Shown: positions 1,045-39,620, counted from the first letter of the stretch. The stretch is DNA of 44,850 nucleotides from Acidobacteriota bacterium (GCA_030837085.1 JAUPLE010000104.1:1-44850); one strand, 5' to 3'. The notes: generated from the letters alone by a model not told the origin. A program made the numbers and translations.

Positions 1045-4000
1045 TTACTCTTGAGATAACGCCCTAACAAATAATTGCCAGGTCTGAATAACTGCCGGAC
1101 TTTTCAGGATCGAAAAGTGAGTGCCGCTTATTTCATACGTTTTTACAGGATTAGCACAGTAATCATTCCAACTATTTAGAAATACTCGTGGAGATTGATT
1201 TGCCTTAAAATAGTGAAGCTCGGTTATAATTTTCCGAGAAGGAATATAGTCTAACCGTGCATTAGTTAAAGTTCTACCAATATTCAGGTAATAAATTAAA
1301 TCCCTGGCGCCCAATCGCTGGTAATTGGGAATTATTTGAGCCAGGTAATCCGGAATCATTGCCTTTATTATATCAACACTATAATGATTTTCTTCCCAAA
1401 AATTGACTATTGAGGACCAAATCTCATTCATATCGGTTCGATTATTCACTTCTTCATGGATTCGATTATCACCCTGCCAATACTCCAGGAACAATTCTTT
1501 TTCGGATTGCGGGGTAAAGGCAAAGGCTTGTTCTTTCCAATCCCCTTGCGGACCCGGGGCGTCGAGCAGACCGAGGAACGAGACTGCTTCTCCCAACCGT
1601 TCCAATTGCAGTACCATTTCAAAAGCAATAGTACCTCCCAAAGACCAACCCACAATACGATAAGGTCCCTTCGGTTGAACTTTTTTTATCTTCTCAATAT
1701 AGTCCTCGGCCAATTTCTCAATGGTGATATTCCGGGGACCGCAGTTTTCACGATTTATAACATCGGTGCGCAAACCCCAAATATTTAAATCCACATCCAC
1801 AGGAAATTGTTGACAGAATTCCAAATACCCTTCCACTTCCCCGCTGCCGTCGTGAACCAGGAAGAGATGATGGACCTCCGATGATCCTTTCCGCAACAAT
1901 ACAACGTAAGGATCAGCTATCCCGTGAGCCTCCTTTTCCATACCCGCTATATATTCAGCCAAATGACGAATGGAAGGTCGAATAAATACTTCCGCCAGGG
2001 GAACCTTTACCTTGAACATCTCATAGACCCGGGCTGTCATTGCCGTGGCTTTCAATGAATGTCCACCTATTTCGAAAAAATTAGCATCGATACCGATCGA
2101 CGGTTGACCTAAAATCTCAGACCACAATTCCGACAATTTCCGTTCAATCTCATTCCTCGGCACCGTAAACTCTTCTTTTATTCCAGCATTCACAACGGGA
2201 TCAGGAAGCGTTTTCCGATCGATTTTACCATTGGGATTCAAAGGGATTTTTTCAATCGACATAAAGTAAGTGGGGATCATATAATCCGGCAACTGCTGCA
2301 ATAAATATTGTCTTAGATCACTAGCGGAAACCTCTTTTTTATCGGCAGAGGCAACAAAATACGCGATGAGATATTTATCTTTATGTTCATCTTCTTTGAC
2401 CAGTACCACTGCATCTTTAATCCCGGGATAATGCAATAACCGGTTCTCTATTTCCCCCAATTCAATACGGAATCCCCTGATCTTGACCTGCTCATCGATC
2501 CGCCCCAGGTATTCGATAATCCCTTTAGTGGTTCCCCCCACCGGGGGGCCATCCGAAAGCCACCGCGCCAGGTCGCCGGTCCGATAAAACCTTTGCCTCC
2601 GGCGGGTCAGAACCTTTTTGAAAAAAGGTTCCGACACCTCCAAAAACTTCTGATTAGTTAATTCCGGGTTATTCAAATACCCCATGGAAACCCCATCACC
2701 CCCAATATACAATTCACCGGCAATATTTACCGGGCATACATTATTATATTTATCAAGGATTAGATGGACCGTATTACCAGCCGATTCCCCAATGGGAATA
2801 CTGCCAAGCGAAACAAATTGCGTTAAACTTTCCCGCTCGATTTCCAATACCGCGGATATAATCGTTGCCTCCGTGGGACCATACATATTAAACACCCGGC
2901 ACCCACTGCTCACCGATGCAAAACTCCGTTCCACCAGGTCATAAGTCAATTTCTCCGCGCCGATAAATAGAGACTTTAAAGTAATGGGAATGGTAGGCGC
3001 TTTTACAATATATTGATACTGCGTAGGCGTTACATGAAGTATGGTCACGCCATGCCGGTTCATAAAATCAACACTGGCAGCCGCGTCCATTAATACTTCT
3101 TCCGAAACCATGCAAAGACTTGCGCCGGACGTAAGAGTAATAAATATCTCCCACACCGACCAATCAAAATAATAAGAGAGGTTCTGGAGGGTGCGATCAT
3201 GAATCCCAATACCCAGGTTGTGATATCCCCAATGCAGCAGCGGCGACAAATTGGCATGGGTAATGAGCACACCTTTGGGATTCCCGGTGGAACCGGAAGT
3301 GTAGATGACATAAGCGAGATTTGAAGAGCTTAGAAGGTAAGAGGGTAAGAAGGTAAGAGGGTAAGAAGAATTATTGGGAGATTCGGAGATGTCTTCAAAA
3401 AAAAGTTTCTCACCTTCCCACCTTCCCACGCTCAACTTCTCACCTTCTTTATTGCTGGCGGTAACCAATATTTTGGCTCCGCTATCTATCAACATAAAAT
3501 CGCTGCGTTCCCCCGGGTTCCTGGGATTGATCGGCATATAAGCACAGCCAGCCTTCCATATACCCAGGATGCCGGCAAGCATTTCCAAAGAACGTTCCAC
3601 CAGCAGCCCCACAATGTCACCCGATTGGACATCCTTCCGGATCAATAAATGGGCCAGGTGCCCCGATTTTTTATTTAATTCGGAATAGGTAATATAGGAC
3701 CCATAAGACCTATAGGACATATATTCAAATAGTACTATCCCGTCGGGTGTCCGGGCTACCTGCTCTTCAAATAATCGGCAGATGTTTTTATCCTCCGGGA
3801 AATAAAGGGTTGTTCCGTTAAACTCATACAAAAGCTGCAGTTTTTTTTCTTCGGTTATAATCTCCACAGCGGCTATTTTTTGATGCGCATTTCCAATAAT
3901 TACGGATACCACCTGTTTGAAATATGCGGCAAAACGCCGCATCGTCTCCTCTTTGAAAAGTTTGGTACAATAAGTGAACGAGCAAACCAGTTTCTCTTCA

Positions 4001-7000
4001 ACTTCAGTACAGGTCAAAATAAGATCGAATTTTGCAATCCCGGTTTCGATTTCATAGGGGATTATTTTTAATTGGGATGTTTCTACGCGGGCATTTTCTT
4101 TGCCCTGGGTTTCCAGGTTTTGTAACGAAAACATAGTATCAAAGATGGGGTTACGACTAACATCACGGTTTAACAATACCTTTTCCACTAAGTCTTCAAA
4201 CTGGTACTCCTGGTTTTCAAAAGCGTCCAGGGTACTTATTTTGAGTTCCGATAAAAAATCAACGAATTCCATATGGCCTTCGGGATAGTTCCTCAGCGCC
4301 AACGTGTTGACAAACATACCAATCGTTTTTTCCAGGTCCGCATGTCGGCGGCCGGCGATAGGTGTGCCGATAACAATATCTTCCTGGCCCGTTAGCCTGG
4401 CCAATAAAATATTGTATACAGCCAGTAAAAGCATGTACAATGTTACACCCCGCGCAGCGACAATACCCTTTAAGGCAGCGGTGGCATCCGAAGGTATCGT
4501 AAAACCGAATGAGCGACCTTCAAAACTCTGTACTACCGGCCTGGGATAATCAGTGAAGATATTCAGCGCCGGTACTTCGCCTTCAAACACGTTAAGCCAA
4601 TAGGCTTCCTGCTTTTTTATTCTTTCTTTTTCGCTATATTGCCACTCGGAAAAATCTTTATATTGAATTCTTACCGGTTCCAGATGGTCACCGTTGTATA
4701 GGGCAAAAAAATCCCTGATCAATATCCCGTTGGAGACTCCGTCGGAAATAATGTGATGCATATCGACGGCCAGCACATGTTCGGTTTCCGCTTCTTTAAC
4801 CAATCCCACCCGTAGTAATGGCGCTCTCGATAAATCGAAAGCGCGGATAAAATGATTCGGTGTATTCACGAATGATGAATGATGAAGTTTTTCTACTTCG
4901 CGTTCCTTCGCGTTCTTCGCGGCCAAATCATAACATTCGATTTTAAATTCCACTTCTTCAAGTACCTTCTGCACCGGGTCCCGGCCTAACATATGAAAAG
5001 AGGTTCTTAAACTATCATGGCGCTGGATCAATTTCCCGAAAGTCACTTTTAATTTTTTGCTGTCAAGCGCCCCGGAGAGGTGGAAAACCTGCGGCATATT
5101 GTAAGCGACACTTTCTAGTTCCATTTGCTGCAAAATATACAACCGTTTTTGGGCCGATGATAAGACATAATAATCCTTTTTTTCCACGGGCTCAATCGAT
5201 AGATACTTCTCCTGCCTCACACCCTGTATAAATGCTGACAATTCTCTGATGGTGGGATTTTTAAATATTTCTATTACCGGCGTTTTTACATTAAAGGTCT
5301 TATGTACCCTTGCAGCCATGATAGTGGCCTTTAACGAATGCCCTCCTATATCAAAAAAGTTTGTGTCTACCCCCAGTTGGTCCTTTTGGATTCCCAATAT
5401 TCCCGACCATATTTCCAGCAATTTTGCTTCAATTTCATTTTGCGGGGCTGTGTGTGCGCCTACTGCGGTTACAATGGGTTCGGGTAGCGCTTTCCGGTCA
5501 ATTTTCCCGTTAGGATTCAAAGGAATTCTTTCAATTTGAATAAAATAAGCTGGAACCATATAATCCGGTAGATGCTGCGCCAAGTACTGTTTAAGTTCAG
5601 TGGTTAGGACCTCATTTCCAGTCACTTTAGCAACAAAATACGCGATGAGATATTTGTCTTTATTTTCATCTTCTTTGACCAGTATTACGGCTTCTTTAAT
5701 CCCGGGATAGTGTAATAGCCGGTTCTCTATTTCTCCCAATTCGATGCGGAATCCCCGAATCTTGACCTGCTCATCGATCCGCCCCAGGTATTCGATAATC
5801 CCTTTAGTGGCTCCCCCCGCCGGGGGGCCATCCGAAAGCCACCGCGCCAGGTCGCCGGTCTTGTAGAAAATATATGTCTTATAGGACTTATAGGACCTAT
5901 AAAATTTGTCTGCGGTTAATTCCGGGTTATTCAAATACCCCATGGAAACCCCATCGCCCCCAATATACAATTCACCGGCAATATTCACCGGGCATAAGTT
6001 ATTATATTTATCAAGGATTAGATGGATGGTGTTGCCCGCCGATTTCCCGATAGGGATACTAGTGAGCGATTTAAACTGGGCTAAACTCTCCCGGTGGATT
6101 TCCAAAACCGCTGATATAATCGTTGCCTCGGTGGGGCCATACATATTAAACACCCGGCACCCATTGCTCACCGATGCAAAACTCCGTTCCACCAGGTCAT
6201 AGGAAAGTTTCTCCGCACCGATAAATAAATACTTCAATGTAACAGGTATATTGACCGCTTTTACAAAGTATTGATATTGAGTAGGCGTGGCATGAAGTAT
6301 TGTTGCGCCATGACGGTTGATAAAATCGACCCCGGCGACCGCGTCCAACAACATACCTTCGGGCGATATGTAAAGGCTTGCACCGGTAGTGAGAGTGATA
6401 AATATCTCCCATACAGACCAATCAAAATAATAGGACAGGTTCTGGAGGGTACGATCATGAATCCCAATCCCCAGGTTGTGATATCCCCAGTGCAGCAGCG
6501 GCGACAAATTGGCGTGAGTAATAAGCACACCTTTAGGGTTCCCGGTGGAACCGGAGGTGAAAATGATATAAGCTAAATTTGAAGGGTTTAAATTCGAAGC
6601 ACGAAATTCGAAGCACGAAACAATACCCAAATTCAAATGTTCAAAATCCAAAACCATCAGATATTCAAAGTTTCTGCGTAGATTACTACTTGTCAATAAA
6701 AACCTGGCGCCGCATTCGGCTAGCATATATTCGTTCCTGGCCACAGGGGCTTTGGGGTTCAGGGGTGCATAGGCGCAACCGGCCTTCCATATACCCAGGA
6801 TACCGGTAATCATTTCAAACGAACGCTCCACCAACAAGCCCACAATATCGCCCGATTGGACACCTTTCCGGATCAATAAATGGGCTAGGTGTCCCGATTT
6901 TTTATTTAATTCGGAGTAGGTAATATAGGCCCCATAGGACCTATAGGACATATATACAAATAGCGCAATCCCATCAGGCGTCCGGGCAACCTGTTCTTCA

Positions 7001-10000
7001 AATAATTGACAAATGTTTTTCTCTTCCGGGAAGCACCGCGTTGGATCGTTAAACTCATACAAAAGCTGCTGCTTTTCTTCAACGGATATTATTTCCACTT
7101 CGGATATTTTCTTATTTATATTCTCTATAACAGTTAATACCACCTGGTTGAAATATTGTGCAAACCGCTGGATAGTCTCTTTTTTGAAAAGTTTTATACA
7201 ATAATTGAAGGAACAAACCAGTTGCTGTTCAACTTCAGTACAGCCTAAAATAAGATCGAACTTGGCAACTTCGGATTCGATTTCATAAGGTTTTACTTTC
7301 AATTGTGAAGTACCTACTTGAGGTGTTTCACTATCCCGGTTTCGGCTTTCCAAATTCTGAAAAGTAAACATAGTATCAAAAATTGGGTTACGACTTGCAT
7401 CACGGTTAACCGATACCATTTCCACTAAGTCTTCAAATTGATACTCCTGGTTTTCGAATGCTTCCAGGGTCCTTTCTCCAACTTCAGTTAAGAATTCCCC
7501 GAATTTCTTATTGCCTCCGGGATAGTTTCTTAGCGCCAACGTGTTGACAAACATACCAATGGTTTTCTCTAAATCCGCATGTCTGCGACCGGCGATTGGC
7601 GTTCCGATGATAATATCTTCCTGGTTGGTCAATTTGGCCAATAAAACATTATATAGGGCGAGTAAAGTCATGTACAATGTCGCGCCCTTCGAAGCAGCGA
7701 TACGTTTTAAGGTTCCGGTCACATCCATGGGTAATGCAAAACCGAACGAACGGCCGACAAAACTCTGCACTGACGGCCTGGGATAATCAGTGAAAATATT
7801 CAGTACCGGCACCTCACCTGTAAACACTTTAAGCCAATATGCTCCCTGCCTTGCTATTTCCTCTTTTTTCTTTTCGCTGTTTTGCCATTCGGAAAAATCT
7901 TTATATTGGATTCTTACCGGTTTTGGTTCATCGCCGTTGTAAAGGATTAAAAAATCCCTGATCAATATCCCGTTGGAGACGCCATCGGAAATAATGTGAT
8001 GCATATCGACGACCAGCACATGTTCGGTTTCCGCTTCTTTAACCAATCCCACCCTCAATAACGGCGTTTTAGTCAGATCGAAAGGGCGAATAAAATTCTT
8101 TATAAAATCAGACAACCTTGTAGACAATGTAACATCGCCCCTAATATCCCCTAACCCCGGATTCCTGACTTCCAATGTTTCGATTTCAAATTCGGCCTCA
8201 TCATTTATTCGCTGCACCGGCTCGCTTTCTATCATGGGAAAAAATGTTCTCAAACTTTCATGCCGTTTAATTAGCTTTTTAAAAGCTGTTGCCAATTTTG
8301 CCTCATCTAGTTTCCCGAAAAGATGAAAAGCCTGCGGCATGTTATAGACGGTACTTTCCAACTCCATTTGCTGCAAAATATACAGCCGTGTCTGGGCTGG
8401 TGATAAAACATAATACTCTTTTTTCTCCACTGGTTCCAGGGATGTGTATTTATCGCCTTTCACCACGTGTATACGGACTGCCAATTCCCTGATGGTAGGA
8501 TTTTTAAATATTTCCATCAATGGAATCTTTACACCCAGTACCTTATGTATATTAGAAACAACTACGGTGGCCTTTAACGAATGCCCGCCTACCTCGAAAA
8601 AGTTAGTGTCTACCCCCAATAAGTGCTCTTGGATTCCTAAAATTCCTGACCATATCTTTACTAATTTTGCCTCAATTTCATTTTTCGGCGCTGTGTGAAC
8701 ACTTCCGGTAGTTACCAGGGGTTCGGGCAGCGCTTTCCGGTCGATCTTACCGTTAGGATTTAAAGGAATTCTCTCAATTTGAATAAAATAAGAGGGGACC
8801 ATATAATCCGGTAGATGCTGCGCTAAGTATTGTTTTAGTTCAGCGGTTGGGATATCATCGCCAGCCGAATTGGCAACATAATATGCAATGAGATATTTTC
8901 CCTTGTTTTCATCCTCCTTGACCAGCACTACGGCTTCTTTAACCTGGGAATATTTGATCAATCGATTTTCGATCTCCCCACATTCGATACGGAATCCCCT
9001 GATCTTGACCTGCTCATCGATCCGCCCCAGGTATTCGATAATCCCTTTAGTGGTTCCCCCCGCCGGGGGGCCATCGGAAAGCCACCGGGCCAGGTCGCCG
9101 GTTTTGTAGAAACGGTCTTTTGTCATTTGACATTGGTCATTGGAGAAATTGTTATTACTACTAATGACCAATGACGATTGACTAATGGCATCTCGTTTAA
9201 ATCTCTCTACTGTCAATTCCGGGTTATTTAAATATCCCCTGGATACGCCGGCCCCTCCGACCAACAATTCGCCAGAGACTCCAACCGGGACCAGGAAACC
9301 GTACTTATCTACCACGTAAGCGGTGGAATTGAATATGGGTTTACCGATCGGGATTCTCTGGAGATATTCCTCATCGATCAAAAAAGTAGTTGAAAAGGTG
9401 GTATTCTCGGTTGGGCCGTAGCCATTGATAATATTCAAGTGGGGAAACCTCTTCTTTACACGATTAATATGAACCGGGGACAAGACATCACCCCCAACCA
9501 GCAAATTCTTTATTCCCACAAATATCTCAACATCCATCCCGGATAATTGGTTAAAAAGAGGTGAGGTAAGCCACATGGTAGCAATATCCAATTTTCGTAT
9601 ATTCTCCTTCAATCTTTCAGGATTCAATATCTCATCTTTAGCGGCAATACAGAGTGTCATTCCATTTAATAATGATCCCCAGATTTCAAAAGTGGAAGCA
9701 TCAAATTCCAATGCCCCGGTCTGCAAAAGTCGGTCATTCTCCCTGAATTCCACATAATTTGTATTTTTCACCAACCTTACCACATTACGATGCTCCACCA
9801 TAACAGCTTTTGGCCTGCCGGTGGAACCGGAGGTGTAGATGAGGTAAGCGAGATTTGAAGGGATTTGAAGGTAAGAGGGTAAGAACGTAAGAGAGTAAGA
9901 AGAAATTTTTGGGGATTTGTGGATTGCTTCCAAAAGAACTTTCTTACCTTCCCACCTTCTCACGCTCAACTTCTCACCTTCTTTATCGTTGGCGGAAACT

Positions 10001-13000
10001 AACAATTTAACCCCACTGTCTTTCAACATATAATCAACTCTTTCCTGGGGGTACTCCGGATCGATAGGCAGATAGGCGCCACCGGATTTTAATATACCCA
10101 GGATTCCTATGATTATTTCAATGGAACGTTCCGTTACAATACCAACGATAGAATCGGGTTTGACGCCTTTCTGTATTAGCCACCCAGCCAGGTAACAGGA
10201 TTTATTATCTAATTCGATATAGGTAACATGAGACATATGAGATGCACAAAGTGCAATCCGGTAGGGTACCCGTCCGACCTGTTCCTCAAACAATTGACAA
10301 ATGGTTTTCTTTCCCGGGAAGTCCCTCATTGTATCGTTGAACTCATACAAAAGCTGCAACTTTTCTTTCCCGGTTATTATTTCCAGTTCGGATATTTTCT
10401 TATTTTTATTTTCTATGATTGTTGATACAACCTGCTTAAAATATTGGGCAAACCGCTGGATAGTCTCTTTTTTAAAAAGTTTTGTACAATAATTGAATGA
10501 ACAAACTATTTTCTCTTCAACTTGAGTACAGGTTAAACTGAGATCGAACTTTGCAACCTCGGATTCGATTTCATAAGGTTTTATTTTCAATCGGGATGTT
10601 TCTGCCTGTGGGATTTCACTGGACCGAGTATCAAAATTTTGCAGAGTTAACATGGTGTCAAAGATAGGATTACGACTGGCATCACGTTTAAGCAATACCT
10701 TTTCCACTAAATCTTCAAATTGGTACTCCTGGTTCTCATAAGCTTCCAGGGTCTTTTCCTTGACCTCCAATAAAAAATCCACGAACCCCTTATGGCCTTC
10801 GGGATAGTTCCTCAGAGCCAGGGTATTGACAAACATGCCAATAATTTTTTCCAGGTCCGCATGCCGACGAGCAGCAATGGGTGTCCCTACAATAATATCC
10901 TCCTGGCCACTGAGTTTGGTCAATAATATACTGTAAATCGACAACAGCGCCATGTATAAAGTGCTTCCTATTTGCTGTGCCAATAGGTTTAATTCAATGG
11001 TAGACTCAGTAGATAGGTCAAACAATAGGCTGTTCCCTTCAAAACTTTGAACCTCTGGCCTGGGATAATCAAAGGGTAAATTTAAAACCGGGACTTCCCC
11101 GTTAAACTGCATTAACCAATACTTTTCCTGTTTTGCGACCGTTTTCTTTATCGTTTCGCTGATTTGCCATTCGGCATAGTCTTTGTATTGGAATTTCAAA
11201 ATAGGTAATCGCTCTCCGCCATATAAACTGATCGCTTCTCTAATAAACAACCCCATGGAGGTTCCATCAGTGACAATATGATGCATATTTACCAGGAGTA
11301 TATGCCTCTCTTTTACCGGCTTTATTACCATCACGCGCAATAATGGGGCAGCGGAAAGATCAAAAGGTCTCATAAGACGATCACATATATCAGGCATGGA
11401 AAACAGCTCTGCTGATGAAGATGGTAAAATTGAAAGATCAAAATAGTCGGAGTTAAAGTCTACTTGATCATGAATCTTCTGAATCGGCTCTTCCTCTAAT
11501 AGGTGAAAAGACGTACGCAAACTTTCATGACGTGCCAGCAATTGGCTGAAAATCCCTTCAAGAATGTCAACCTCCAATTGCCCATCTATCTCCACTGCCA
11601 GCGGTACATTGTAAGCAGAGCTTGTTAAACTCATCTGCTGCAAGATATATAATCGTTTCTGGGCCGAAGATAAACAATAATACTCTTTTTTTTCTGCCAA
11701 TTGTATGGACGCAAAAGGATCTTCACTCGATTGGAGTATATAATTGGACAACTCTCTTATGGTAGGAATACTAAATAACTCGGCCAGTGGGATATTCACA
11801 TTAAATGCTTTGTGCAGTTTTGATATTAAGATCGTGGCCTTTAAGGAATGCCCTCCCAATTCAAAAAAATTATCTTCAATACCAATCGAGTGTTCCAATT
11901 GAGATATATGCCCTGCGTCTCGCCCTAATACCTCTGCCCATATTCTTACCATCCTATTTTCCACATTATTCCGTGGGGCAATATATCCACTCCCTATTTC
12001 GATTCCCGGTTCAGGAAGCGACTGTCTGTCAATTTTGCCGTTGATAGTTAAGGGAATCCTGTTCAATTGAACAAAATAAGCTGGCACCATATAATCCGGT
12101 AATTGCTGCGCAAGGGACTTTTTTAAAGTCGCAGTCTCAAACAGCGGTTCTACAGGAACGACATAGGCGCAAAGATATTTTTCACCGATACGATTTTTTT
12201 TAACCAATACCACAGCGTCTTTCAGAAAACCGGTTTGCAGCAATCGGTTTTCTATTTCTCCAGGCTCAACGCGATAACCCCTGATTTTAACCTGGGAATC
12301 AACCCGCCCTAAAAATTCGATATTTCCGTCCGGAAGCCAGCGAGCAAGATCACCGGTTTTGTAAAGAATATAGGTCTTTTGGGACCTATCGGACCTATTA
12401 AAAATAAATTTTTCCGCAGTTAATTCCGGGTTGTTTAGATACCCCCTGGAGAGGCCGTCCCCTCCCACAAACAACTCACCCACTGCACCGATAGGAGTTA
12501 GCTGATAATGACTCCCCAGGATATAAGCCAGGGAGTTGCTGATGGGCCTGCCAATAGGAATATTTTCGTGGTATTCTCTATCTATCCGGAAAGTAGTGGA
12601 AAAGGTAGTGTTTTCCGTGGGGCCATAGCCATTGATAATATTTAATTTTGAGAATTGTTTTCTTAAGCGGTTAATATGTGCCGGCGACAGCACATCACCC
12701 CCCACCAGTAGATTTTTGAGACCTTTAAATACTTCGATATCAGTATCAAGCACCTGGTTAAAAAACGGGGCTGTCATCCACATAATGGTCACCTTAAATC
12801 GAATTACCGCTTGTTTTAACTTTCCAAAGTTCAATATCGTATCTCTATCCACCAGGTGTAGAGTTAATCCATTTAACAATGCCCCCCAGATTTCAAAGGT
12901 TGAAGCATCAAATTCCAATGCTCCAGTCTGTAAAATACTATCTGCATCCTCAAACCGGATAAAAGTATTATTCTTCACCAACCGAACCACACTTTTATGC

Positions 13001-14319: not shown

Positions 14320-14499
14320 AGATTTTCCTCTTACTTTTCCCTCAATTTTTTTTCTTATTATATTTTGAAGTCCTGTAGGTTACAAATTGGCGAAAGCCGA
14401 TACGAAGATGAACAAATAGGCAATCTACCGAGTATCAAAACGAGTAGCTTTGAAACTCCGGTCAAAGGGCAATGCAATAAAAATAAAGATAATTCGGAA

Positions 14500-16719: not shown

Positions 16720-16809
16720 TTTGCTACTCCTAATCCTGGTAATTTTAATCTTAATATTTTATCATATTTAATTTTTTTTTACCACCCTTTACATCACAAG
16801 CCCTATTTA

Positions 16810-21606: not shown

Positions 21607-21665
21607 ATTGAGTACTCCTTATCCTGAAAATGAAACAAACTTGCTGAAGTGCATTGTCATTGTTT

Positions 21666-24600
21666 TTATGGTTTGGTGGACGTTTGCAACCAGGCAGAAA
21701 GCGCCCTGATAGTAGGATTTTTAAAAGCTTCCAGCAAAGGTATAACAGAATTAAATTCCTTTTGTATCATAGAAACTAAAATGGTGATATTTAATGAATG
21801 CCCCCCAAGGCCAAAAAAATTATCATCAATTCCAATAGAATCTTTTTCTATGGCTAATAGCTCCGACCAGATTTCCGCCATTTTGATTTCTATTTTGTTA
21901 GTAGGAATACAATAAGCACTCCTGTGCTCATAATGTTCATATTTCGGTTCTGGAAGTGCTTTTCGGTCAATTTTCCCATTGGGAGTTAGTGGAAGCTTTT
22001 TCAAGGAAATAAAATATGACGGTATCATGTATTCAGGCAATCTACCGCTAAGATATTCTTTCAACTCCGATACCTGGATTTCATGCTCTGGGACAAAATA
22101 GGCACATAAATATTTATTGACATTCCCGTTGAGTTCATTGGCTATATTGGTTGTTTTTACAATTACAGCCGCTTCTTTGATTTCTTTATGATTCAATAAT
22201 TGACTTTCAATTTCCCCAAGTTCAATCCGGTTTCCTCTTATTTTGACCTGGGAATCTAATCTTCCCAGGCATTCGATGTTCCCATCAGCTCGGAAATACC
22301 CTAGATCTCCTGTTTTGTATAACACCTTATAATCTTCGTAATCTTCATTATCCAAAACATCTAGATGGGGATTTGGGATAAACACAGCGTCTGTCTTTTC
22401 CCTATTCTTCCAATATCCTTTCCCCACTCCGATTCCTGCTACACAAATCTCACCCACCACCCCAATGGGACATAGTGATAAATATTTATCCAAGATATAA
22501 ATACGGAGGTTTTGCAGCGGTTTTCCGATAGGAACAGTTGTCTGAAACTCAGAAGGTATACCGGGAGTGAAATAGTGGGTAACATTATCCGATGTTTCAG
22601 TTGGTCCATACGCATTGACCAGCGGAATACTGGGGTAATTCCTATACCATTCTCTCACCAATTGGGGACTTAAAGCTTCACCGATGGAAATCATCCACCT
22701 AAGATGTATAAGGCTGATGAACGACTTATCCTCAACCCGCGCAACAACCTCAAGAAAAGCACTAATTTGCGATGGTACTAATTCCAGGATCGTTATCCTC
22801 TCCAATTGGAGGACTCTTAAAAATTCTCTTAAATCCAAAAAAATCATTTTATCGATAATAGTGGTGGTTCCTCCCACCAATAACGCAGTTAAAAATTGCC
22901 ATACTGATATATCGAAACATGCGGAAGCAGTTTGAGCAATCTTATCTTCACTGGTAATGGACAAATCATGGATCATGGCATAAAGATGGTTAAGCATCCC
23001 CAATTGATGAATCATCACTCCTTTAGGTTTTCCTGTGGTCCCCGAAGTATATATTACATATGTTAGGCGCTGCAGCGAAAACCTATCAGGTTCGCTGAAT
23101 GACTGTGGTGAAACATTTGTCTCCGATATCACTGCCCCAAGAATTGTCCCTATGTCATCCGCAGTTAATAAATTTATTGTTTCACTGTCTTTCAGGATGA
23201 AATCAATTCTTTCACGGGGGTAATCCGGGTCAATGGGTAAATAGGCACCGCCAGCTTTAAAGATCCCCAATATCCCGGTCATCATCTCTATTGAACGCTC
23301 CATCATAACTGCTACCATTTTATCGGGTTTAACTCCTTTTATTTTTAAGTGGAAAGCTAACCGATCGGCGTTTCCATTTAATTCTCGGTAGGTGAGATGC
23401 ATGAACCGCTGTCGCCAGGCAACTACATTAATTGAATTTTTAAGGGATAGTAAAGGCTTCAAGCCCAGGAAAGGTCCGCTAAGAGCAATACGATCCGGTG
23501 TCCTATATACCTGGTCATCAAATAAATATGGATAATCCTTGTCCCGGGAAAGATTATTTTTTGTATTATTAAAGTCATATAATATTTTCCTTTTCTCTTC
23601 CTCGGGAATTATTTCAATTTCAGATATTTTTATTGCCGGCTGTTTTCCAACGATGTCCATTATGCGTTTGAAATAAGAAATAAACCTCCAAATGGTTTCC
23701 TCTTTAAATAATTTTGTACAATATAATAGTTTGAAAAATAATTCTTTATATGTGCCTTCGATATGTAAATATATATCAAAGCCTACTCGTTTGGATTTCC
23801 ACATAGATAATTGATCTATGTTTAAACCTTGCATTTTTATTTCTTCGGTTTCCAGAAAACTAAAATTATAAAGTACATCAAAGAGGGGATTGCGGCCAAG
23901 ATCTCTTTCCATCAGGATTTTGCCCACCAGTTCTTCATATTGATACTCTTGATTTTTATAAGCTTCCAAAGTATGGGCATTCACTTCTGATAATAAGCGG
24001 TTAAACGCTTTATCGCCGCAGGGATAGTTCCGCAATACTAATAACCTGGTGAATATGCCGATCATATCATTAAGAACCGGTTGATTACGGCTGGATATTG
24101 GAGTTCCCACTACAATATCCTCTTGCCCACATATTTTGGCCAGAAAAATATTAAGAATGGTTAATAAGATGACATTTACCGTTGTATTCTCGGTTATTGA
24201 AATCTCTATCAATTTTTTAATTTCTTCCTCATGCATTTTAAAGAGTACTTGATCTGCTTCTCGAGTTTTTATTGATGGCCTAGGAAAATCAGTGGGCAGA
24301 CTCAGTACAGGAACCTCATCTTTAAACTGGTTCAACCAGTATTCTTCCTGTTTTTTCCGGATTTCAATACCCAATAAACTCTCCAGAAACCATTTCCGCT
24401 GCCAACAGGAATAGTCAGCATATTGGTAAGGAAGTTCAGATAAACCGGGAACCGACGGTTTCCCTTGTGTGAATGCGTTGTAAAAATAGGCCAATTCTTC
24501 AAAAAAAATCTTTGTAGAAATTACATCGCTTATAAGATGATGCATAGCTATAAAAAAGATATGCTGATATGCATCCAATTCAAACAATAACGTCTTTATT

Positions 24601-25070: not shown

Positions 25071-25089
25071 ACTTTGTTCTCCTCATTTC

Positions 25090-28323: not shown

Positions 28324-28349
28324 GGTCTCCTCTTTTTTCTCCTTCTGTT

Positions 28350-31300
28350 TCACGAGATCCTTAATTTTTGGGCTTGCTTAAAACGATTATTATTAAACGT
28401 CTGCCGCTGTTTATTCCCTCTATCCTGACTCCTTTTAAAAACACTCTCTGGTTGCAGTTCAGGCTTTTGATTATTACCAATATGCCCTGCGAGGGAATAA
28501 ATTGTGGGGTAACGAAATAGGTCTACAATAGTTAACTCCCGATCATAAATCTCACTCAAACGACTGTGCACCTGGGTAAGTAACAAGGAATGCCCTCCTA
28601 AATCAAAAAAATTATCGTTAATCCCAACCTTCTCCAGGTGCAAATACTCCATCCATACCGATGCGATGACTTGCTCGATCTCCGTCTGCGGCGCCTTGTA
28701 TTTTACCTCCAGATCCTGCCGAACATTGTATAATATGGGGAGAGCAGCGATATCCACTTTCCCATTGGTAGTTAAAGGCATCGCATCAATAAATACGATA
28801 AAGGCTGGGATCATGTATTCCGGTACCCGGCGACCTATCCACTCCCGCAATTCGTTGCTGCCGACTTTTTGCCCACTCCCGACAACAACATAAGCCACCA
28901 AGCGCCTGTCCCCTGGAACTATTTCACGGACCACTACAGCAACATCGGCTATAGCCGGATGCAGCCCAAGGTAAGTTTCAATCTCTGATAATTCTATCCG
29001 ATGCCCATGAACCTGTACCTGTGTATCGATCCGTCCTAAAAACTTAATGCTTCCGTCCGACTGCCAACTGCCTAAATCACCGGTTTTAAAAAGAATATAG
29101 GTCTTATAGGACTTATAGGACCTATTTTTATTTTTAATAAACTTTTCCGCCGTTAATTCCGGGTTGTTTAAATATCCCCGGGATATTCCTTCACCGCCTA
29201 TGTACATCTCACCCGGCACGCCTATGGGAACTACATTATAATACCTATCCAAAATATAAACCTTTGTATTGATGATAGGCTTCCCCACGGGAATTATCGG
29301 ATATTTTGAAAAATTCAAACCCATTTCATTTACAATCGTATATGTCGAACAAACTGTAGCTTCGGTTAAACCATACCCATTGACAATGGTAATCGCTTCG
29401 ATCAAATGATCGATATCGCCGGCGGAAAGCGCTTCTCCACCACTCAACAACAGCCTCAGTTTCCCAGGTCGCCACTCAGCGGAATTCAGTCGGGCAATCA
29501 TAGACGGAACCGTGCTGAGGATGGTTATATCTTGGGTGGAAATTAAAAGTTTTAACTTCTTTATATCCAAAAAAGAAACCCTATCCGCTAAAAATATAGC
29601 GCCGCCAGAAGTTAAAATAGGCAATATCTCTCCCACAAAACTGGCCGAGGCGATAGATGTCAATGGCAGTATCCTATCTCCAGGCCCCGGGCTATACGAA
29701 CGGATAAATGAATATACCAGGTTTACAATATTCCTATTATCGATCAAAATCCCCTTGGGCTCCCCGCTAGAACCGGATGTGTAAATCACGCAGGCAGCAT
29801 TCTCCGCACAACAGCCGTTTAGACAATTATTATCACTTTTTCCAGAAATGAAATCCTTTTCATTATCCAGGCAAACGATTCTTTTCCCGTACCACTCAAA
29901 CCGGCTTAACTCAGTAGTAGCGGTAATCAGTACCGTTGAGCAGGCATCCTTCAATATGGACATCAATCGCCCATCGGGATAGGTGGGGTCCATAGGAATA
30001 TACGCCCCTCCGGTCTTGAGTATTCCCATAACTCCTACGATCAAATCCAACGAATTTTCCATACAAATCCCAACCAGCGTCTCAGTTCCAACATTCATTT
30101 CGTGTAATAAATGTGCCAACTGGTTGGCCTGGCAATTGAGTTCTGTATACGTTAATTGTCTGTTTTCAAATATAACGGCAGTTTCATTGGGATTCTTCTC
30201 TACACAGATTTCAAATAATCGGTATATACAAATATCTGCGGGGTAATCGCAATCGGTGTCATTCCAATGAACCAATAAATGCTGCTTCTCCTCTTCCGAA
30301 AGCATGGGAAGTTGGGAAATCGCCTGGTCAACGCTGCTGAGAACCGCGTCCAGCAACGCCTGGAAATGAGCAGTTATCCGCCGGATGGTATCGACTTCAA
30401 ATAAATCCGTGCTGTACTCGAATGTTCCTTTCATACCACCCGCTTCTTCCCACATGGTTAATGACAGGTCCATCTGGGAAAAACCGGTGTCGATCTGGAT
30501 AGGAATAATGGTAAGGTCAGAAATGCTTATCGCCGGCATTGGGGCGTTCTGCAGTTGAAACATCACCTGGAATAATGGCGTTACGCCTAGATTTCGCTGT
30601 GGGTTTAACTCCTCTACCAATCGTTCAAACGGGATATCCTGGTATTTGTACGCTTCAGAAAAAGCGGAGCGAACTCCCAGGAGAAGTATCTCAAACGTGG
30701 GATTCCGGGAAAGATCCGTGCGTATGACCAATGTATTGACAAACAGACCGATTAGGCCTTCCAATTCGATGCGGTGGCGACCGGCGATAGGAATACCGAT
30801 AAGTATGTCTTCCTGACCTGAATAGCGAAATAGGAGTGTATTATAAACGGCCATTAACAGCATAAAAAGAGTAACATTCTCCCTCCGGGCCAGGGTGTTC
30901 AGTTCCTGAAGTTTGTCTCCTTGGATATAAAAGGGCTGGACCGATCCTTTCCCTGAGAGCATATTGGGTCGCGGGTGATCAGTGGGTAATTCCAGCATTG
31001 TCGGGGATCCGGCCAATGCGGTTCTCCAATAGGCTAATTGGGTCTCATATAACTGTCCCTGCATCCATTCATGGAGCCATTGTACATAATCGGTATATTG
31101 GATGGGGAGTTCGCCCAACGGTGAAGGTTTTCCTTGATTAAAGGCTTCATAGAGAGAGATTAATTCTTTCAACATGATGCCCTTGGACCAACCGTCCATG
31201 ACAATGTGATGGATACTAACCACCAGGGCATAATCGTCCGTTGCTATTCTCAGTAGCCCGGCCCGAATAAGGGGGGCGTCAGCTAAATCAAAAGGCTGCC

Positions 31301-31697: not shown

Positions 31698-31734
31698 AAG
31701 AAATTGATAAATTTTTCACTTCCAGGGACGGCAT

Positions 31735-34700
31735 TTAATTGGAAAAAACTTCCCTGTATGTCCTGGCGATTTCTTCAACGGTTTCCGCATCCCCCCAGGT
31801 ATCAACCACATGACCGACTATTTCCCGGATAGTGGGTTTATCGAACAGGATGTTTAACGGCAAATCGATACGAAAGACCTCCCGCATCCGAGCAATCAAT
31901 TTCGTGGCCAGCAGCGAATGTCCTCCCAGGGCAAAAAAGTCATCCTGCACGCCCACCGGTGCGATACCCAACAATTGCTCCCAGATTTCGGCAGCGATCT
32001 TTTCCGCATCTGTTTGCGGTTCCTCGTAAATATTTTGCAGTTGGGGTCTTTTATGGACCGCCGATTTAGCGCCCGCGGATTCATCCTGAACCCCGGTACT
32101 CGAAACGGGGGCAGAAACCGGCAAAACCCACTGTCGGAGACGCTTATCCAGGCTCCTGCATGAAATCACTACCTGGGGTGTCCCGGGTGAATTCATTGAT
32201 AATACCCGTTGCAACGCTTCTTTCCCTTCTTCGCTCGTTATAGACGCTGTATTGCGTATACAACCCGGTGACCGATCTCTTTGCCATTCATCCCAGTTGA
32301 TACTGATCCAGTTATTGCCATAAACTTGACTTTGTTCCCGGGCCAGAGCATCCATAAAACTATTAGCCGCACTATATGCATACAAGCCAATACCACCTAA
32401 AACCGCTGATAGTGAAGAAGTTAAAATACAAAAATCCAGGGTTTTATCTTTAAACACATCTGCTATCACATTAGCCCCATATATTTTAGGGCCAAAATGA
32501 ATTTCACAAGTTTCCTTATCCAGTTGTGAGATGGGCTTAAAGTGCTCGTCCGACATGACCCCGGCGGTATGAATTATCCCGTGGATGTCACCGAACCTTG
32601 CTTCGACCAGACGGCGCGCGTGGACCATTTGTTCTTTTACAGAAACATCGGCCTCGATAACCTGTACCTCTGCTCCAGTTTCTTCCAGGCTTTTTATACG
32701 GGGATCCCCCGTTAAATATCTTCGGTCGGTCAGTATGAGTTTGGCGTGTACGGTCTGTGCTAAATAGTGGGCAAACGTAAACCCAATCCTGCCCAGACCG
32801 CCGGTTATAAGATAAACTCCGTTCTGTCTTAATTTTATCGGAATCCCGGGATAATTTCCCAGTTTTATCGGTTCATGGGATTGCACCCAACGAGTATTCC
32901 CACGATAAGCAATCACACGGTCCGGTGGTGAAACGTTTAATTCTAAAAATAAGTTATGCAATATTTCAGTGGAAGTATCGATCTCCAGGTTTCGGCAAAT
33001 GATATTGGGATATTCCTGGGAAATTACTTTGCATGGTCCGGGGATGGTCTCTTTCAAAGGACTGATGGTATCTCCGCTCTCGATCTTAAACATATGGTCA
33101 GATATGATCCAGAATTCTATGAGATTGAACAGGGACTGTTTTCCCAGGGCTTTTACCAGGTAAAGGAGGCTGTAAATCCCCCGCTCCAGTAAAATGTCGG
33201 ACAGTTCTGACTTGGTCCAAAAATGTACGATTTTGTCGATGGTTTTATCGTGGTTTACAATATCTTCCAGTAGGGCGTTATAATCATTGGGGCAACCAGG
33301 GTTAATTTCATAAGCGTCTTCGCCGGTTCGGGCAAATTGCGCTCCGATCGTTACAGTAATGATATGTTGGCCTTTTTCTTTCAGCAGGGGGATTAACTGC
33401 TCCTGGGTTGTCAAGAAAAACAACCAGCATTTGGGCTGCGCTAGATTTTTTTCTATTTCTTGCCGATCCAGGAAGGAGGGAGCGGTTTGTTTCCAGGTGG
33501 GGATATAAAACCAATCTTCTATTTTTTTCTTTCCTTCCTCTATTATTTCCTTATCTACCGTTGCATCATTTCCTGGTTGAAGCCAATAGCTGTTCTTTGC
33601 AAAGGGATAGGTGGGCAGGGGAACACGGTGTCTTTCTTGCCCAGCGTGGAATTCTTTCCAGTCGATTTCCACACCGTGGAGCCATAATTGGCCTATGCTA
33701 TTGAGTAAATAATAGGAATCCGATATTTGTTTTTTTGGATGACGGACCAGATCAATGATTACCGTACCATCGTTTTTGTCTGTTCCCAAATGCTGTTTAA
33801 CAAAAGTACTGGCTGTCCGGCCCGGCCCAACTTCGATAAAAATGGGTACTGTAATTTCCAGGAGTTTCCTTATGCCGTCCGCAAACCGCACGGTTTGGCG
33901 TAAATGATTTGCCCAGTATGTGGGGGAGGTTGTTTCTTTTTCGGTTATCCAGTCGCCGGTTAGATTTGATATGTAGGGAATCTGGGGAGGATTTAGCCGG
34001 ACTCGTTTGGCGGTTTCTTCGAACTCCTTCAATATGGGGTTCATCATCGGGGAATGAAATGCATGGGAGGTGTGAAGTAGAGTACTGTCATATCCTTTCA
34101 GTTTCAACAGCTTTTCGAAGGAATAAACTGCATCATGGGGTCCGGAAACAGTACAGAGGTTTGAAGAATTCACTGCCGCCAGGGAGAGTTCTGCGGCGTC
34201 GCTGTTCTTGCTATTTTCCTCTAATATTGTCAGCAGGTCTTTTTCCAGGATGGGGACGCTTAACATGGCGCCGGGGGGCATTTTTTGCATTAGTTTTCCC
34301 CTGGCTACCACTAGTTTTAAAGTGTCTTCCAGGGTGAGTACTCCGGACAAACAAGCGGCAGTATATTCGCCGATGCTGTGCCCGATCATGGCATGAGGTT
34401 TGACTCCCCAATTCATTAACAATTTGGCCAGTGCATATTCGATGGTAAAAATTACCGGCTGCGTAATTTCTGTTTGGTCTATAATATCGGTCTTATTGGA
34501 CCTATAGGACTTATTATCCCTATTACCGTCAAGTGAAGGATAAAGAATCGTTTTAATATCATAATCAATAATTGGTTGTAAAATTTCAAAACAGTGGTCC
34601 ATTTCGCGGCGGAAGACCGGTACGTTCTGGTACAGGTACAGGCCCATATCGACATACTGCGAACCCTGGCCAGGGAACATGAATATAACCGGCCTGCTTC

Positions 34701-37700
34701 CGGGCTCGGAAAAAAAGATTTCTCTTTTCTCGCTGTTAGTCAGGGCTTCGATGGCTTCATCCTTATTGGAGCATACAAACATTTGCCGGTAATGAAAACG
34801 TGCCCGGCCCACATGTAAGGTATAGACCGCATCGGCCATATTTATAGAGAGCGTATTTTTTCTTAAATAATCGGCCAGGTTCCTGGCTTGTTGTTCCAAT
34901 GCAGTTTGAGTTTTTGCAGACAATAAAATCAATTCATATTGTTTAACTCCTGATCCCTCCACACTGCCCCCTAAATATTCTTCTAATATCACATGGGCGT
35001 TGGTGCCGCCGATTCCCAGGGAACTGGCGGCAGCACGACGCGGCGTCTCCGAGTCCGGCCAATCACGTAGTTTAAGGTTCACATAAAAGGGGCTGTCGGC
35101 GAAACCGATCAAGGGATTAGGTTCCGTTACATTAATACTGGGGGGAATTTGTTTATATTTAAGACATAATACCGCTTTTATTAAGCCGATAACACCGGCT
35201 GCCACATCCAGGTGACCGATATTGGCTTTTACGGAACCCAAGGCGCAGTATTGCTTGCCGCTGCCAGCACTGCCGTACGCTCGGATCAAGGCGGAAATTT
35301 CCACGGGGTCGCCCAAGACCGTACCAGTGCCGTGGGTTTCAACGTACCCAATAGTATGGGGCTGGATGCGGGATTCTTGTAGGGCTTTTAAAACCACATC
35401 CGCCTGGCCGCTTTCACCAGGACTGTGGAAGCCTACCTTTAACGAACCGTCATTGTTGATGGCTGAACCTTTAATTACGGCATAGATATGATCGTTATCT
35501 TTAACGGCTTCGGACAACCGTTTGAGCACAACAATACCGACCCCGTTGCCGAATACGGTGCCTTTAGCAGCGGCATCAAAAGGCCGACAATGGCCGTCCG
35601 GGGATAAATGGCCGCCTTCGGTATAAAAGTACCCGGTCTTTTCCGGTATTTTAACGGCGATTCCACCGCTTAAGGCTATATCACAATCATGGGCCAATAG
35701 CGCTTGCCTGGCCAGGTGAACCGCTGTCAATGAAGTAGAGCAGGCTGATTGTATGGCCACACTGGGTCCCTTTAAATTGAGCTTGTAAGAGACGCGGGTG
35801 GTCAAAAAATCTTTATCGTTCCCGATCATGGTCTGGAACTCTCCCTGGGTTTTTATCACACCGGGATTTTTCAATACGTTATTTAATAAATAGGTGTTCC
35901 AGCCAACCCCGGCATAGACCCCGATGGACCCGGGATAGGTTTCCCCCATATAACCGGCATCTTCCAACGCCTTCCAGGCATATTCGAGAAATATTCGCTG
36001 CTGGGGGTCCATTAACTCGGCTTCCCTGGGATGATACCCGAAAAAATCAGCGTCGAATAAATCAATGTCCCCCATTACTCCACCAGCAGCAATAAGTTTG
36101 GAACTTCCCTTTATGACCTGGTAAGCTTCGGAACTTTCCAGTTCATCTTCCTGGAAAAATGTGATGGATTCAACGCCGTTTATTATATTCCGCCAAAATT
36201 CGTCAATACCAGTCGCCCCGGGCACTCGCATGGCTATCCCAATAACTGCGATATCCCGGCTGCCCAGCCTTGTCTCCTGCGTTTCCTTTGCTTCCTCTTT
36301 TTTTACTTCGGCATCAGCCTTCCCGGTAACGTTCCCTTCTATAAATGCAGCCTGGCGCGCAATCGTAGGATACCTGAACAACTCCACTACCGATATCGCC
36401 CGCTTCAGTTTGAAGTTTTTTTCCAGTTTGCTCTTTAACTTGATGAGCAGTAAAGAATGTCCACCCAAATCGAAAAAATTATCATCCACACCAATCTTTT
36501 CTTTTTCCAGGAGCTCCTTCCAAATTTCCTGAATTTTACTTTCATATTCACTTCGTGGTGGAAGATAAGCCTCACCGATGCCAATATTGCCATCTACCTC
36601 CATGCTGACCAATGCTTTCCGGTCGATTTTCCCGTTGGGCGTCAAAGGCAAACTCGCTAGCGGCATGAAATGTGCAGGAACCATATAATCGGGAAGCGTT
36701 TTTAATAAGTACTGCCGAATCTCCGAAACAGGAACCTCCCCACTGGAAACGAAAAAGGCATAGAGATTCTTTTCTCCTTCCCTGTCCTCCCTCGCCACTA
36801 CCGCCGCCTCTTTAATACCCGAATAACGCAAGACATGGTTCTCGATCTCTCTCAACTCCACCCGGTTGCCACGAATCTTTACCTGGTGATCAATACGACC
36901 TAAAAATTCTACCCTACCGTCCGGCATCCATTTACCTAAATCACCGGTTTTGTATAGAGTGCCTCCGGCGGCCAGAAACCCTTTTGAAAAAGGGTTTCTG
37001 GACTTCCTAAAACTTTTTATGAACTTCTCTGCGGTCATCTCCGCCCGCTTCCAATACCCATAACATACACCAGCCCCTATAGCACATATCTCCCCTACTA
37101 CCCCCACCGGCTGCAATTGATAATGATGATTCAATATGAATACATTCGTGTTCAAAGACGGCCTACCAATAGGAACCTTCCGCGTATCCGTATCCACTGG
37201 GATCGTGTAATGCATTATATCATCGCTGCATTCGGTCTGACCATAACAATCCACTAAATCGATACCTATATATTTTTCATAAAATTTGTTTACGACAAAC
37301 GGTTTGGTCTCCTCCGATGTCAACGCAATCTTCCTTAACTTCTCCAGCTTTATCTTCTCTTTCCCCTCATCCAATAAGAATAGATACGTTTTTAATACCG
37401 GCGGGATAAGTTCAATAACCGTTACCCCATCTGCCTCCACCACCTGGAATTGCAAATATGGGTCCCACTCCACCTCATCCGTATACACCACCAACCGCGC
37501 CCCCATAAACAACGGCGCCAAAACCTGCCACACCGCTGCAATAACATTGATACTGAAATTATTGGCCACCGTATCCGCTTCCGTAATCCCTAACACCCCT
37601 ATTTTTGTATAGGTATGATTCACAATACCCGAATGATGCAATAACGCCCCTTTCGGTTTTCCCGTCGAACCCGAAGTGTAAATTATATAAGCCAAATCCA

Positions 37701-39580: not shown

Positions 39581-39620
39581 TAATTATTAATTGTCAATTG
39601 TTAATTATTAATTGTTAATT
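39581..39620. repeat. Intergenic 7-bp tandem array (YAATTRT)
   Basis: TAATTAT TAATTGT CAATTGT TAATTAT TAATTGT TAATT. Confidence 0.88.

Follow-up and report, generated by a model that had tools for sequence, protein, structure and literature searches.

Rickettsia palindromic elements (RPEs) are dispersed palindromes that occur in intergenic DNA and also in frame within many protein genes, where the encoded peptide is thought to be compatible with the fold of its host protein (PMC10969869). Repetitive extragenic palindromic sequences (REPs) and REPINs are short stem-loops tagged with GTAG or CGTC, mostly extragenic and often arranged as head-to-head pairs; intragenic REPs encode 20-30 residues presumed to lie in flexible loops, and those found in genes of one functional category are mostly at different sites (PMC3733652). 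Here we describe a 44,850-bp stretch of metagenomic DNA (the window), in which dispersed and tandem repeats fill the loop between core motifs A6 and A7 of the adenylation (A) domains of nonribosomal peptide synthetases (NRPSs). Two further kinds of sequence serve as comparison: interrupted A domains, in which auxiliary domains are embedded between core motifs, and the short tandemly repeated repetitive (STRR) sequences of cyanobacteria, short tandem heptamers that are dispersed and occasionally lie in genes. An earlier note on this DNA had claimed that a repeat from one of four families replaces the A6-A7 loop in seven of eight A domains, and that this slot behaves as an exchangeable cassette turning over faster than modules duplicate. 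Our preferred reading, to which we assign a probability of about 0.7, takes the A6-A7 loop as a landing pad, permissive to selfish repeats of the RPE or REP kind, that turns over faster than the surrounding domains and forms the 3' limit of the exchanged A-core.

The window is the entire contig C261 of metagenome bin G000 and carries on its minus strand an NRPS/polyketide synthase (PKS) cluster with five NRPS-bearing proteins and eight A domains; the Pfam families AMP-binding and AMP-binding_C are present in all five proteins. Motifs A6 (G.G...GY) and A7 (YKTGD) were located in all eight domains, and the loop was taken as the sequence between ...(LT)AEKF and YKTGD. DNA repeats were called with Tandem Repeats Finder (TRF) and a repeat finder, and folding was compared with that of 200 dinucleotide shuffles. 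The eight loops are located as the earlier note stated and the repeats it reported in seven of them were confirmed: read in frame, the loop is a 9-mer array in three domains, a pair of inverted heptamer arms in one, a GAATGAT array in one and a hairpin of about 58 nt, here called the palindromic element (PE), in two. All open reading frames (ORFs) of the window are intact, and all eight genes remain in frame across the loops.

The two PE copies, which like all the loops are on the minus strand, lie in the 2609-aa NRPS/PKS (36955-37020, IKSFRKSRNPFSKGFLAAGGTL) and in module 4 of the 4424-aa NRPS (2587-2655, with the loop listed as 2587-2643; LEVSEPFFKKVLTRRRQRF). They represent two subfamilies of one element, each read in its own frame, module 4 carrying the second subfamily. 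In the 2609-aa protein the 14-nt hairpin arms (36972-36985/36988-37001) are 100% complementary and fold with -26.4 kcal/mol (z -4.1), and in module 4 the arms, likewise of 14 nt (2606-2619/2622-2635), are 93% complementary and fold with -30.8 kcal/mol (z -4.8); none of the 200 shuffles was as good in either case. Dozens of copies outside ORFs match the first at 95-98% identity, and the second shows 92-96% identity to such copies.

Three loops belong to the 9-mer family. The array of module 3 of the 4424-aa NRPS (5866-5901, YRSYKSYKTYIF) is called by TRF at 5878-5901 with period 9, and that of the 1115-aa NRPS (29091-29138, IKNKNRSYKSYKTYIL) at 29096-29125 with period 9 and 3.3 copies, three of them in register. 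Module 1 of the 4424-aa NRPS (12364-12405, IFNRSDRSQKTYIL) has a degenerate array without a TRF call, which was placed in the family by a peptide-motif rule; near-identical peptides are found on other contigs (IFNRSDKSYKTYIL and IEYRSDRSYKTYII). The fold z of the three arrays is -1.3, -2.0 and -3.6, the last value being that of the 1115-aa protein. Module 2 of the 4424-aa NRPS (9109-9198, KRDAISQSSLVISSNNNFSNDQCQMTKDRF) holds inverted arrays of a TTGGTCA/TGACCAA-type heptamer, whose 23-nt arms (9119-9141/9163-9185) are 83% complementary and fold with z -3.8, again with 0 of 200 shuffles as good. The GAATGAT array of the 1598-aa NRPS (18862-18903, SNFYHSSIIHHSKL; TRF 18868-18888, period 7, 3 copies) showed no structure in the folding test, nor did the loop of the 1134-aa NRPS (22320-22379, IPNPHLDVLDNEDYEDYKVL). 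This last domain alone keeps a native loop, as had been claimed, with EDYEDY encoded by a 9-nt tandem duplication (direct repeat 22330-22338/22339-22347). Three further loops in the genome start with (I/V)xNP(Y/F), have 17 residues and follow an A6 flank (GYWK, GYLK or GYWQ) like that of the 1134-aa domain; on our reading of these sequences the four domains may form one distinct class.

The proportion of filled loops in the window is typical of the genome, where a recognisable cassette was found in 156 of 206 loops. A six-frame motif scan of the bin gave 146 loops with a strict A6 pattern and 208 with a relaxed one, two of the latter being artefacts; the strict set was labelled by peptide-motif rules of our own choosing and the remaining loops by BLAST against the labelled ones. 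The 206 loops comprise 65 with 9-mers, 70 with PE, 21 with heptamers, 6 others and 44 of canonical length; 24 of these last are exactly 11 residues long and typically read I-E-N-P-Y/F-x-x-G-D-R-L. By frame and orientation the PE loops split into groups of 43, 14, 10 and 3; the heptamer loops split into 12, 6 and 3, and the inverted-arm family accounts for 6 of the 206. Since composite loops occur (heptamer with inverted arms, PE with heptamer, an acidic stretch with PE), the repeats can nest in one another. A further small loop family, I.IRSEWSD.SDLSDRF and its variants, which was placed in none of the repeat classes, was seen on contigs C432, C943 and C1011.

The distribution of the repeats beyond the slot shows that the four families reported earlier are real and of two kinds. 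PE was searched by BLAST with five loop-derived queries (E<=1e-6, loci merged), and a spanning ORF was defined as a frame open for 240 nt to both sides, which is a proxy and not a gene call. Of 208 PE loci, 116 have no spanning ORF; the 92 in open frames are 27 in A6-A7 loops, 54 at other positions in NRPS ORFs and 11 in other ORFs. The 146 strict loops make up 0.11% of the genome, so that 0.23 PE loci would be expected in them against the 27 seen; NRPS-like DNA as a whole, 11.5% of the genome, contains 81 of the 208. GAATGAT arrays form 177 loci, among them 107 outside ORFs, 6 in the slot and 55 at other places in NRPS ORFs; another heptamer has 21 loci, 11 of them outside ORFs. A relaxed search for the 9-mer gave 68 loci, none outside ORFs and 47 in the strict loop set; the other 21 are mostly A6-A7 loops missed by the strict scan, the rest lying in a pre-A1 loop or a PKS acyltransferase (AT) loop, and the array uses a single frame in every translation printed. 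A BLAST search with the module 2 loop returned three matches to the inverted heptamer arms, all in A6-A7 loops and none elsewhere. PE and GAATGAT are thus dispersed genome repeats found mostly outside ORFs, and the 9-mer and inverted-arm cassettes were found only in NRPS/PKS ORFs.

Tandem arrays also occur at other positions in the window. A 9-mer array (period 9, 3.6 copies; ...YMSYRSYGSYITY...) lies in frame just before A1 in modules 4 and 3 (3692-3723 and 6923-6954), a position that is a second slot for this cassette, and an array of the 9-mer family is in frame at 34485-34515 in the acyltransferase loop of the 2609-aa protein (...NKSYRSNKTDII...), with similar copies in AT domains of four other contigs. 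Some 650-800 nt upstream of the A6-A7 loop in modules 4, 3 and 2, at a position that is probably the A2-A3 loop, there are arrays of 8-mers, 14-mers and 16-mers (3332-3368, 3407-3429, 6590-6620 and 9852-9901). Downstream of the module 3 A domain, the 4424-aa ORF contains 2.4 copies of GAATGAT and an adjoining 10-mer array (4870-4921), and a TAATTGT heptamer array of 5.7 copies (39581-39620) separates the aminotransferase gene from the start of the 2609-aa gene. Modules 2-4 have in common a 27-nt, nine-residue insert between A7 and A8 (DG-PPxGGxTKG-IIEYLGR, at about 2521-2547, 5800-5826 and 9043-9069) with a C6GG(C/T)G6 mini-hairpin, which the other five A domains of the window do not have.

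Aligned with its flanks, PE spans from ...(T)AATCAAAAGTTTT to ...GCCGCCGGAGGCA and often stands head-to-head with a copy of the sister subfamily, also in several intergenic copies. Over 100 copies, 70 of them outside ORFs, 13 pairs of the stem are 98-100% paired and five show compensatory types (for example C-G 71 / G-C 25, A-T 59 / G-C 41 and C-G 60 / T-A 40); the hairpin is maintained. The A6-A7 slot contains the element in either orientation and in two reading phases, and a third phase (...PKVFGSPETFFQKGFWPPGA...) is read in frame shortly before ...FDLSxAPLLRVG... on contigs C855, C424, C342 and C212, a motif that we take to belong to the condensation (C) domain. The two slot phases, both orientations and the third phase elsewhere argue for several independent arrivals and not for one founder.

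The native loop, with its xNPFxxGxR residues, is overwritten and not merely split. An 11-residue native loop is reduced in the 2609-aa protein to its initial I and its final L, which flank a PE peptide of 20 residues. Throughout the class to which module 4 belongs, which has 10 loops, the 5' end of PE (...AATCAAAAGTTT) stands in for the LTAEKF codons and gives LTNQKF, the N-Q-K-F codons of module 4 coming from the element in place of A-E-K-F; the reverse-oriented class supplies ...R-G-A/S-F, with the F retained. The native codons ...AAAATTTAT(T/A)GAAAACCC.T.T resemble AAAAGTTTT...AGAAACCCTTTT of PE, a possible microhomology for its capture, and the codons ...AAAAGTTT... may be a landing point.

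Cassette family was compared with A-domain phylogeny on a FastTree of 133 A domains of the genome, chosen for having 250 or more residues before the loop and 60 or more after it, with the loop itself removed. The family required 69 changes, against 80.1±2.6 for shuffled labels and the minimum of 9 that perfect tracking would give, so that perfect tracking is clearly not seen; an upstream-only tree gave 69 changes and a downstream-only tree 75. For the 104 cassette-bearing domains the count (56) is indistinguishable from random (56.7±2.0, minimum 8), and it is the state 'canonical versus cassette' that carries tree signal (16 changes against 26.5±1.5). Among 22 pairs of A domains with at least 70% amino acid identity, 10 are canonical in both members and 8 of the other 12 differ at the loop, seven with two different cassette families and one with a canonical loop against a cassette. 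On the other hand, 25 loop pairs have a DNA identity of 93% or more, which reaches 100% over 57 nt in one pair, and their flanks (300 nt upstream and 255 nt downstream, motif codons excluded) are 0.56 and 0.61 identical, compared with 0.55 and 0.60 for random pairs. Cassettes common to unrelated domains and different in related ones indicate that the slot changes faster than the domains diverge.

The proposal that slot turnover exceeds module duplication is therefore supported by the lack of agreement between family and tree, and the term exchangeable cassette describes the behaviour of the slot, to which it should be added that two of the four families are also ordinary dispersed repeats. The example that had been offered, near-identical modules 3 and 4 with different cassettes, holds for the cassettes but not for the near-identity, as these modules share 80-85% of their nucleotides overall and 73% of the A-domain residues (76% with the loop masked). 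In 60-nt windows their identity is 87-95% in the 120 nt or so that flank the loop on each side, and BLAST homology breaks at the loop; in an alignment of modules 2-4 the identity between 3 and 4 ends after the K-F codons and resumes just before Y-K/R-T, with unrelated sequence between.

An alignment of 28 A domains of the genome served to model the A domain of the 2609-aa protein with AlphaFold2. The core motifs A3, A7, A8 and A10 of the AMP-binding fold are intact: among the 28 domains TSG..G.PK, GD and GR.D are invariant, and a near-terminal NGKxDR appears in the consensus line, outside the invariant columns. The model has a mean predicted local distance difference test score (pLDDT) of 87.8 and a predicted template modelling score (pTM) of 0.87. 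The loop corresponds to residues 350-371, and the pLDDT falls below 50 at residues 355-357 and 359-367 alone, both within the PE-coded part. LgrA is matched with a whole-chain E of 9e-176 (3e-92 and 1.1e-80 for A-domain stretches), and both of its solved A domains align over the whole query with two chain gaps each at the loop, where HMMER pairs the PE-coded NPFSKG with the native LgrA HPLEKG. No additional Pfam family was found within the A domains of the window. Judging from the model, the A6-A7 loop is best read as a structurally permissive and probably disordered surface loop.

If the A6-A7 loop is a permissive landing pad, its cassettes would come from two sources. Dispersed selfish repeats (PE and the heptamer microsatellites) would insert or be copied into the loop and be read through in any frame that stays open, whereas the 9-mer and inverted-arm cassettes would pass between modules, presumably by short-patch gene conversion that uses the highly conserved codons of motifs A6 and A7. 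New cassettes would replace old ones or nest in them, which would raise the turnover of the slot above the divergence of the domains. Under this scheme the passengers would be neutral, and microhomology may direct their capture.

Several observations weigh against this reading. The 9-mer (0 of 68 loci outside ORFs) and the inverted arms (none outside loops) are not ordinary genomic repeats, and the use of one frame by the 9-mer is better explained by copying between genes or by selection on the peptide than by insertion at random. The roughly 100-fold excess of PE in the slot means that neutral tolerance alone is insufficient and that targeting, copying between modules or selection is needed. 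No transposase, target-site duplication or empty site was found for PE, whose mobility is deduced from its distribution alone; as regards the marks of a MITE, terminal inverted repeats with a target-site duplication, no duplication is evident in 66 copies aligned with their flanks, and the whole element folds as one long imperfect hairpin. The lone signal of a Y1 transposase is a PF01797 fragment of 24.9 bits covering 52 of 121 profile positions at a contig end, in a genome that is 87% complete. The family labels depend in part on self-chosen peptide motifs, and the FastTree was built from domains that recombine, which weakens its deep branches. Finally, the 39 nt and 45 nt beside the loop are only modestly more alike within a cassette family (0.74 and 0.69) than otherwise (0.67 and 0.64).

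The loop also marks a boundary between mosaic parts of the A domain. All 14,196 pairs among 169 A-domain regions with 900 nt on both sides were compared in the blocks -300 to -60 and +120 to +360, a pair being close with at least 78% identity on one side and then staying close (at least 72%) or falling to background (below 66%) on the other. Across the loop, 32 of 46 close pairs fall to background and 10 stay, whereas at a mock junction inside the core 40 of 44 stay and none falls, and at two downstream mock junctions 5 of 28 and 5 of 22 fall. In 14 profiled pairs, taken from 40 close ones, the switch in identity lies no more than about 60 nt from the loop and occurs in both directions. Modules 2 and 3 of the window are 42-62% identical upstream of the loop, which is background, and 93-95% just after it; there modules 2, 3 and 4 are nearly identical, and the core of module 2 is unrelated. 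The loop is best read as the 3' edge of the exchanged A-core, where core pieces are swapped between modules, in agreement with the description of natural recombination as mainly swapping A-core pieces while A-sub stays native, with core motifs proposed as crossover sites (Baunach et al., 2021; PMC8097286). A rank-correlation scan with 40-residue blocks showed no special dip at the loop (rho 0.32, against 0.12-0.25 inside the core), although it is noisy, and the ends of high-identity tracts are uninformative for breakpoints because conserved A7-A8 and A3 motif DNA dominates them.

This boundary is what an alternative explanation builds on, in which the repeats are functional recombination aids, portable homology or fragile hairpins that set the 3' limit of A-core exchange and speed up peptide diversification in a lineage with at least 150 A-domain matches per genome (the bin and four relatives). 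The sharpness of the switch (32 of 46), the near identity of modules 2-4 right after the loop in spite of the unrelated core of module 2, the start of similar upstream tracts 650-810 nt before the loop and the published exchange of A-core with retention of A-sub (PMC8097286) would all fit. Partners in one-sided mosaics, however, share a cassette family in about 8-9 of 26 cases against an expected fraction of about 0.20, which is no clear excess; pairs with canonical loops (C434/C521 and C312/C929) drop in the same way; the block scan lacks a dip; and conserved A6 and A7 codons could suffice as crossover sites, following the core-motif proposal of PMC8097286. We therefore consider an active role of the repeats unlikely. 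We are just as doubtful of its broader form, in which repeat-filled A6-A7 and A2-A3 loops would bracket the A-core as portable crossover or fragile sites and selfish repeats would drive the swapping of specificity cores.

Less likely still is an action of the hairpins on RNA, as pause sites before A7 that assist co-translational folding or as REP-like stabilisers against exonucleases in long NRPS messages. The hairpins are stable (-26 to -31 kcal/mol), their stem is conserved with compensatory changes and PE is dense in NRPS genes (81 of 208 loci in 11.5% of the genome), all of which such a role would predict; but the hairpin is present in 70 of 206 loops only, 44 loops are canonical, the GAATGAT and 9-mer arrays fold weakly or not at all, copies outside ORFs show equal conservation of the stem, the slot holds both orientations and an Rfam gathering scan of the window returned no match.

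The loops were also compared with independent assemblies. Eleven public runs contain parts of the stretch, with no RNA run listed, and Logan contigs of four were compared. Run X1 contributes a contig of 27,149 nt that matches positions 9825-22450 except for one difference and spans the loops at 12364, 18862 and 22320; the remaining three of the six loops compared are unbridged among the contig pieces listed. The assembly-chimera alternative raised earlier is only partly excluded by this comparison. PE shows depth peaks of thousands and is therefore repeated in the community, and the extra letters and joints at loops in Logan contigs stem from paralogous metagenome copies. That short repeats produced chimeric joins of paralogous modules is very improbable, since, although the bin is fragmented (1045 contigs, 87% complete, 3.3% contaminated) and Logan contigs break at or near several loops, most cassettes (27-160 nt) should fit within one usual short read, eight genes keep their frame through them, the X1 contig bridges three loops with a single difference and the slot is likewise filled in the better-assembled relatives G002 and G009 (140-180 contigs).

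Several genomes of the family share the trait of repeats in this slot. PE was matched in 5 of 5 genomes of the same genus, 2 of 12 other genera of the family and 0 of 12 genomes of the same class; that makes three genera with PE and ten other family genera in which the search gave no match. The relatives G001, G002, G005 and G009 have at least 146-150 A-domain matches each and G007 has 53, and single open frames in relatives reach 16,033 residues; the lineage is exceptionally NRPS-rich and uncultured. In a sample of 30 loci from five relatives, biased toward relatives of module 3, the 25 distinct loops are mostly non-canonical and consist largely of genome-specific repeats, few of them starting with the native xNPY. 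A search of the five same-genus genomes for an orthologous cluster was negative, with best matches of 69-75% nucleotide identity and none in G003.

The source bin has 6.94 Mb and 45% G+C. The contig end encodes an elongation factor P (EF-P) that shares 93% identity with its counterpart in a metagenome-assembled genome titled Candidatus Aminicenantes bacterium; another match, at 92%, carries a different label and the next Aminicenantes-titled one is at 63%. From these relatives the organism is probably an Aminicenantes-type acidobacterium. A cyanobacterial origin, suggested by the heptamers, one unit of which may resemble an STRR unit, was rejected on account of the EF-P relatives and of only 49 HIP1 sites in the genome. 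Between two NRPS genes of the cluster lies a 739-aa ORF (14500-16719) with a partial match to DUF5916.

Foreign sequence of 8-53 residues occupies the A6-A7 loop in 162 of 206 A domains; the permissiveness of this site has thus been tested by nature, which is of use for the tagging, splitting or engineering of NRPSs. About 200 paralogous sites per genome, in several genomes, offer dense data on how small palindromic repeats choose and reuse sites within genes. The position of the slot at the 3' boundary of A-core exchange makes a role of repeats in the shuffling of NRPS specificity directly testable, and if the crossover reading were true this would be a natural system of repeat-guided NRPS shuffling. 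In lineages of this kind the cassettes will also confuse annotation, substrate prediction and assembly of NRPS clusters.

In the literature we found no description of repeats in NRPS A-domain loops or of Aminicenantes NRPSs, the supplements of PMC8097286 and PMC3733652 not being covered. The case resembles the A-core exchange of Baunach et al. (2021; PMC8097286) in that the mosaic boundary here, the A6-A7 loop, is close to where the A-core ends; the main text of that article, unlike the situation here, describes no repeat elements at the boundary and uses the word 'repeat' once (supplements aside). As in interrupted A domains, extra sequence is tolerated at a fixed position between motifs, but here it amounts to 12-53 residues of a low-confidence, repeat-coded loop without a Pfam domain, and the site is A6-A7 and not A2-A3 or A8-A9. 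STRR sequences differ in their host, the present one not being a cyanobacterium (49 HIP1 sites, EF-P relatives).

The likeness to REPs lies in a stem-loop that is mostly extragenic, often head-to-head and partly in genes. In contrast to the REPs described in PMC3733652, neither GTAG nor CGTC stands at either end of the stem in the PE consensus of 100 copies, no clear RAYT gene accompanies the element (one 24.9-bit fragment) and a single site is reused in most paralogues. RPEs, as presented in PMC10969869, share with PE the multiple, mostly extragenic copies (116 of 208), the conserved hairpin, the presence in open frames and the position in a predicted flexible loop. They are about 150 bp long, against about 58 nt for PE, and come from another organism; we claim a likeness of kind and not sequence homology. 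PE further departs from them in its concentration on a single gene class and, within it, on one fixed loop, where 27 of 208 loci fall in 0.11% of the genome. It also overwrites the native loop and shares the slot with tandem-repeat cassettes. What sets this system apart from both RPEs and REPs is the combination of one gene class, one loop in most of about 200 paralogues, replacement of that loop, tandem co-cassettes and a recombination boundary at the same place.

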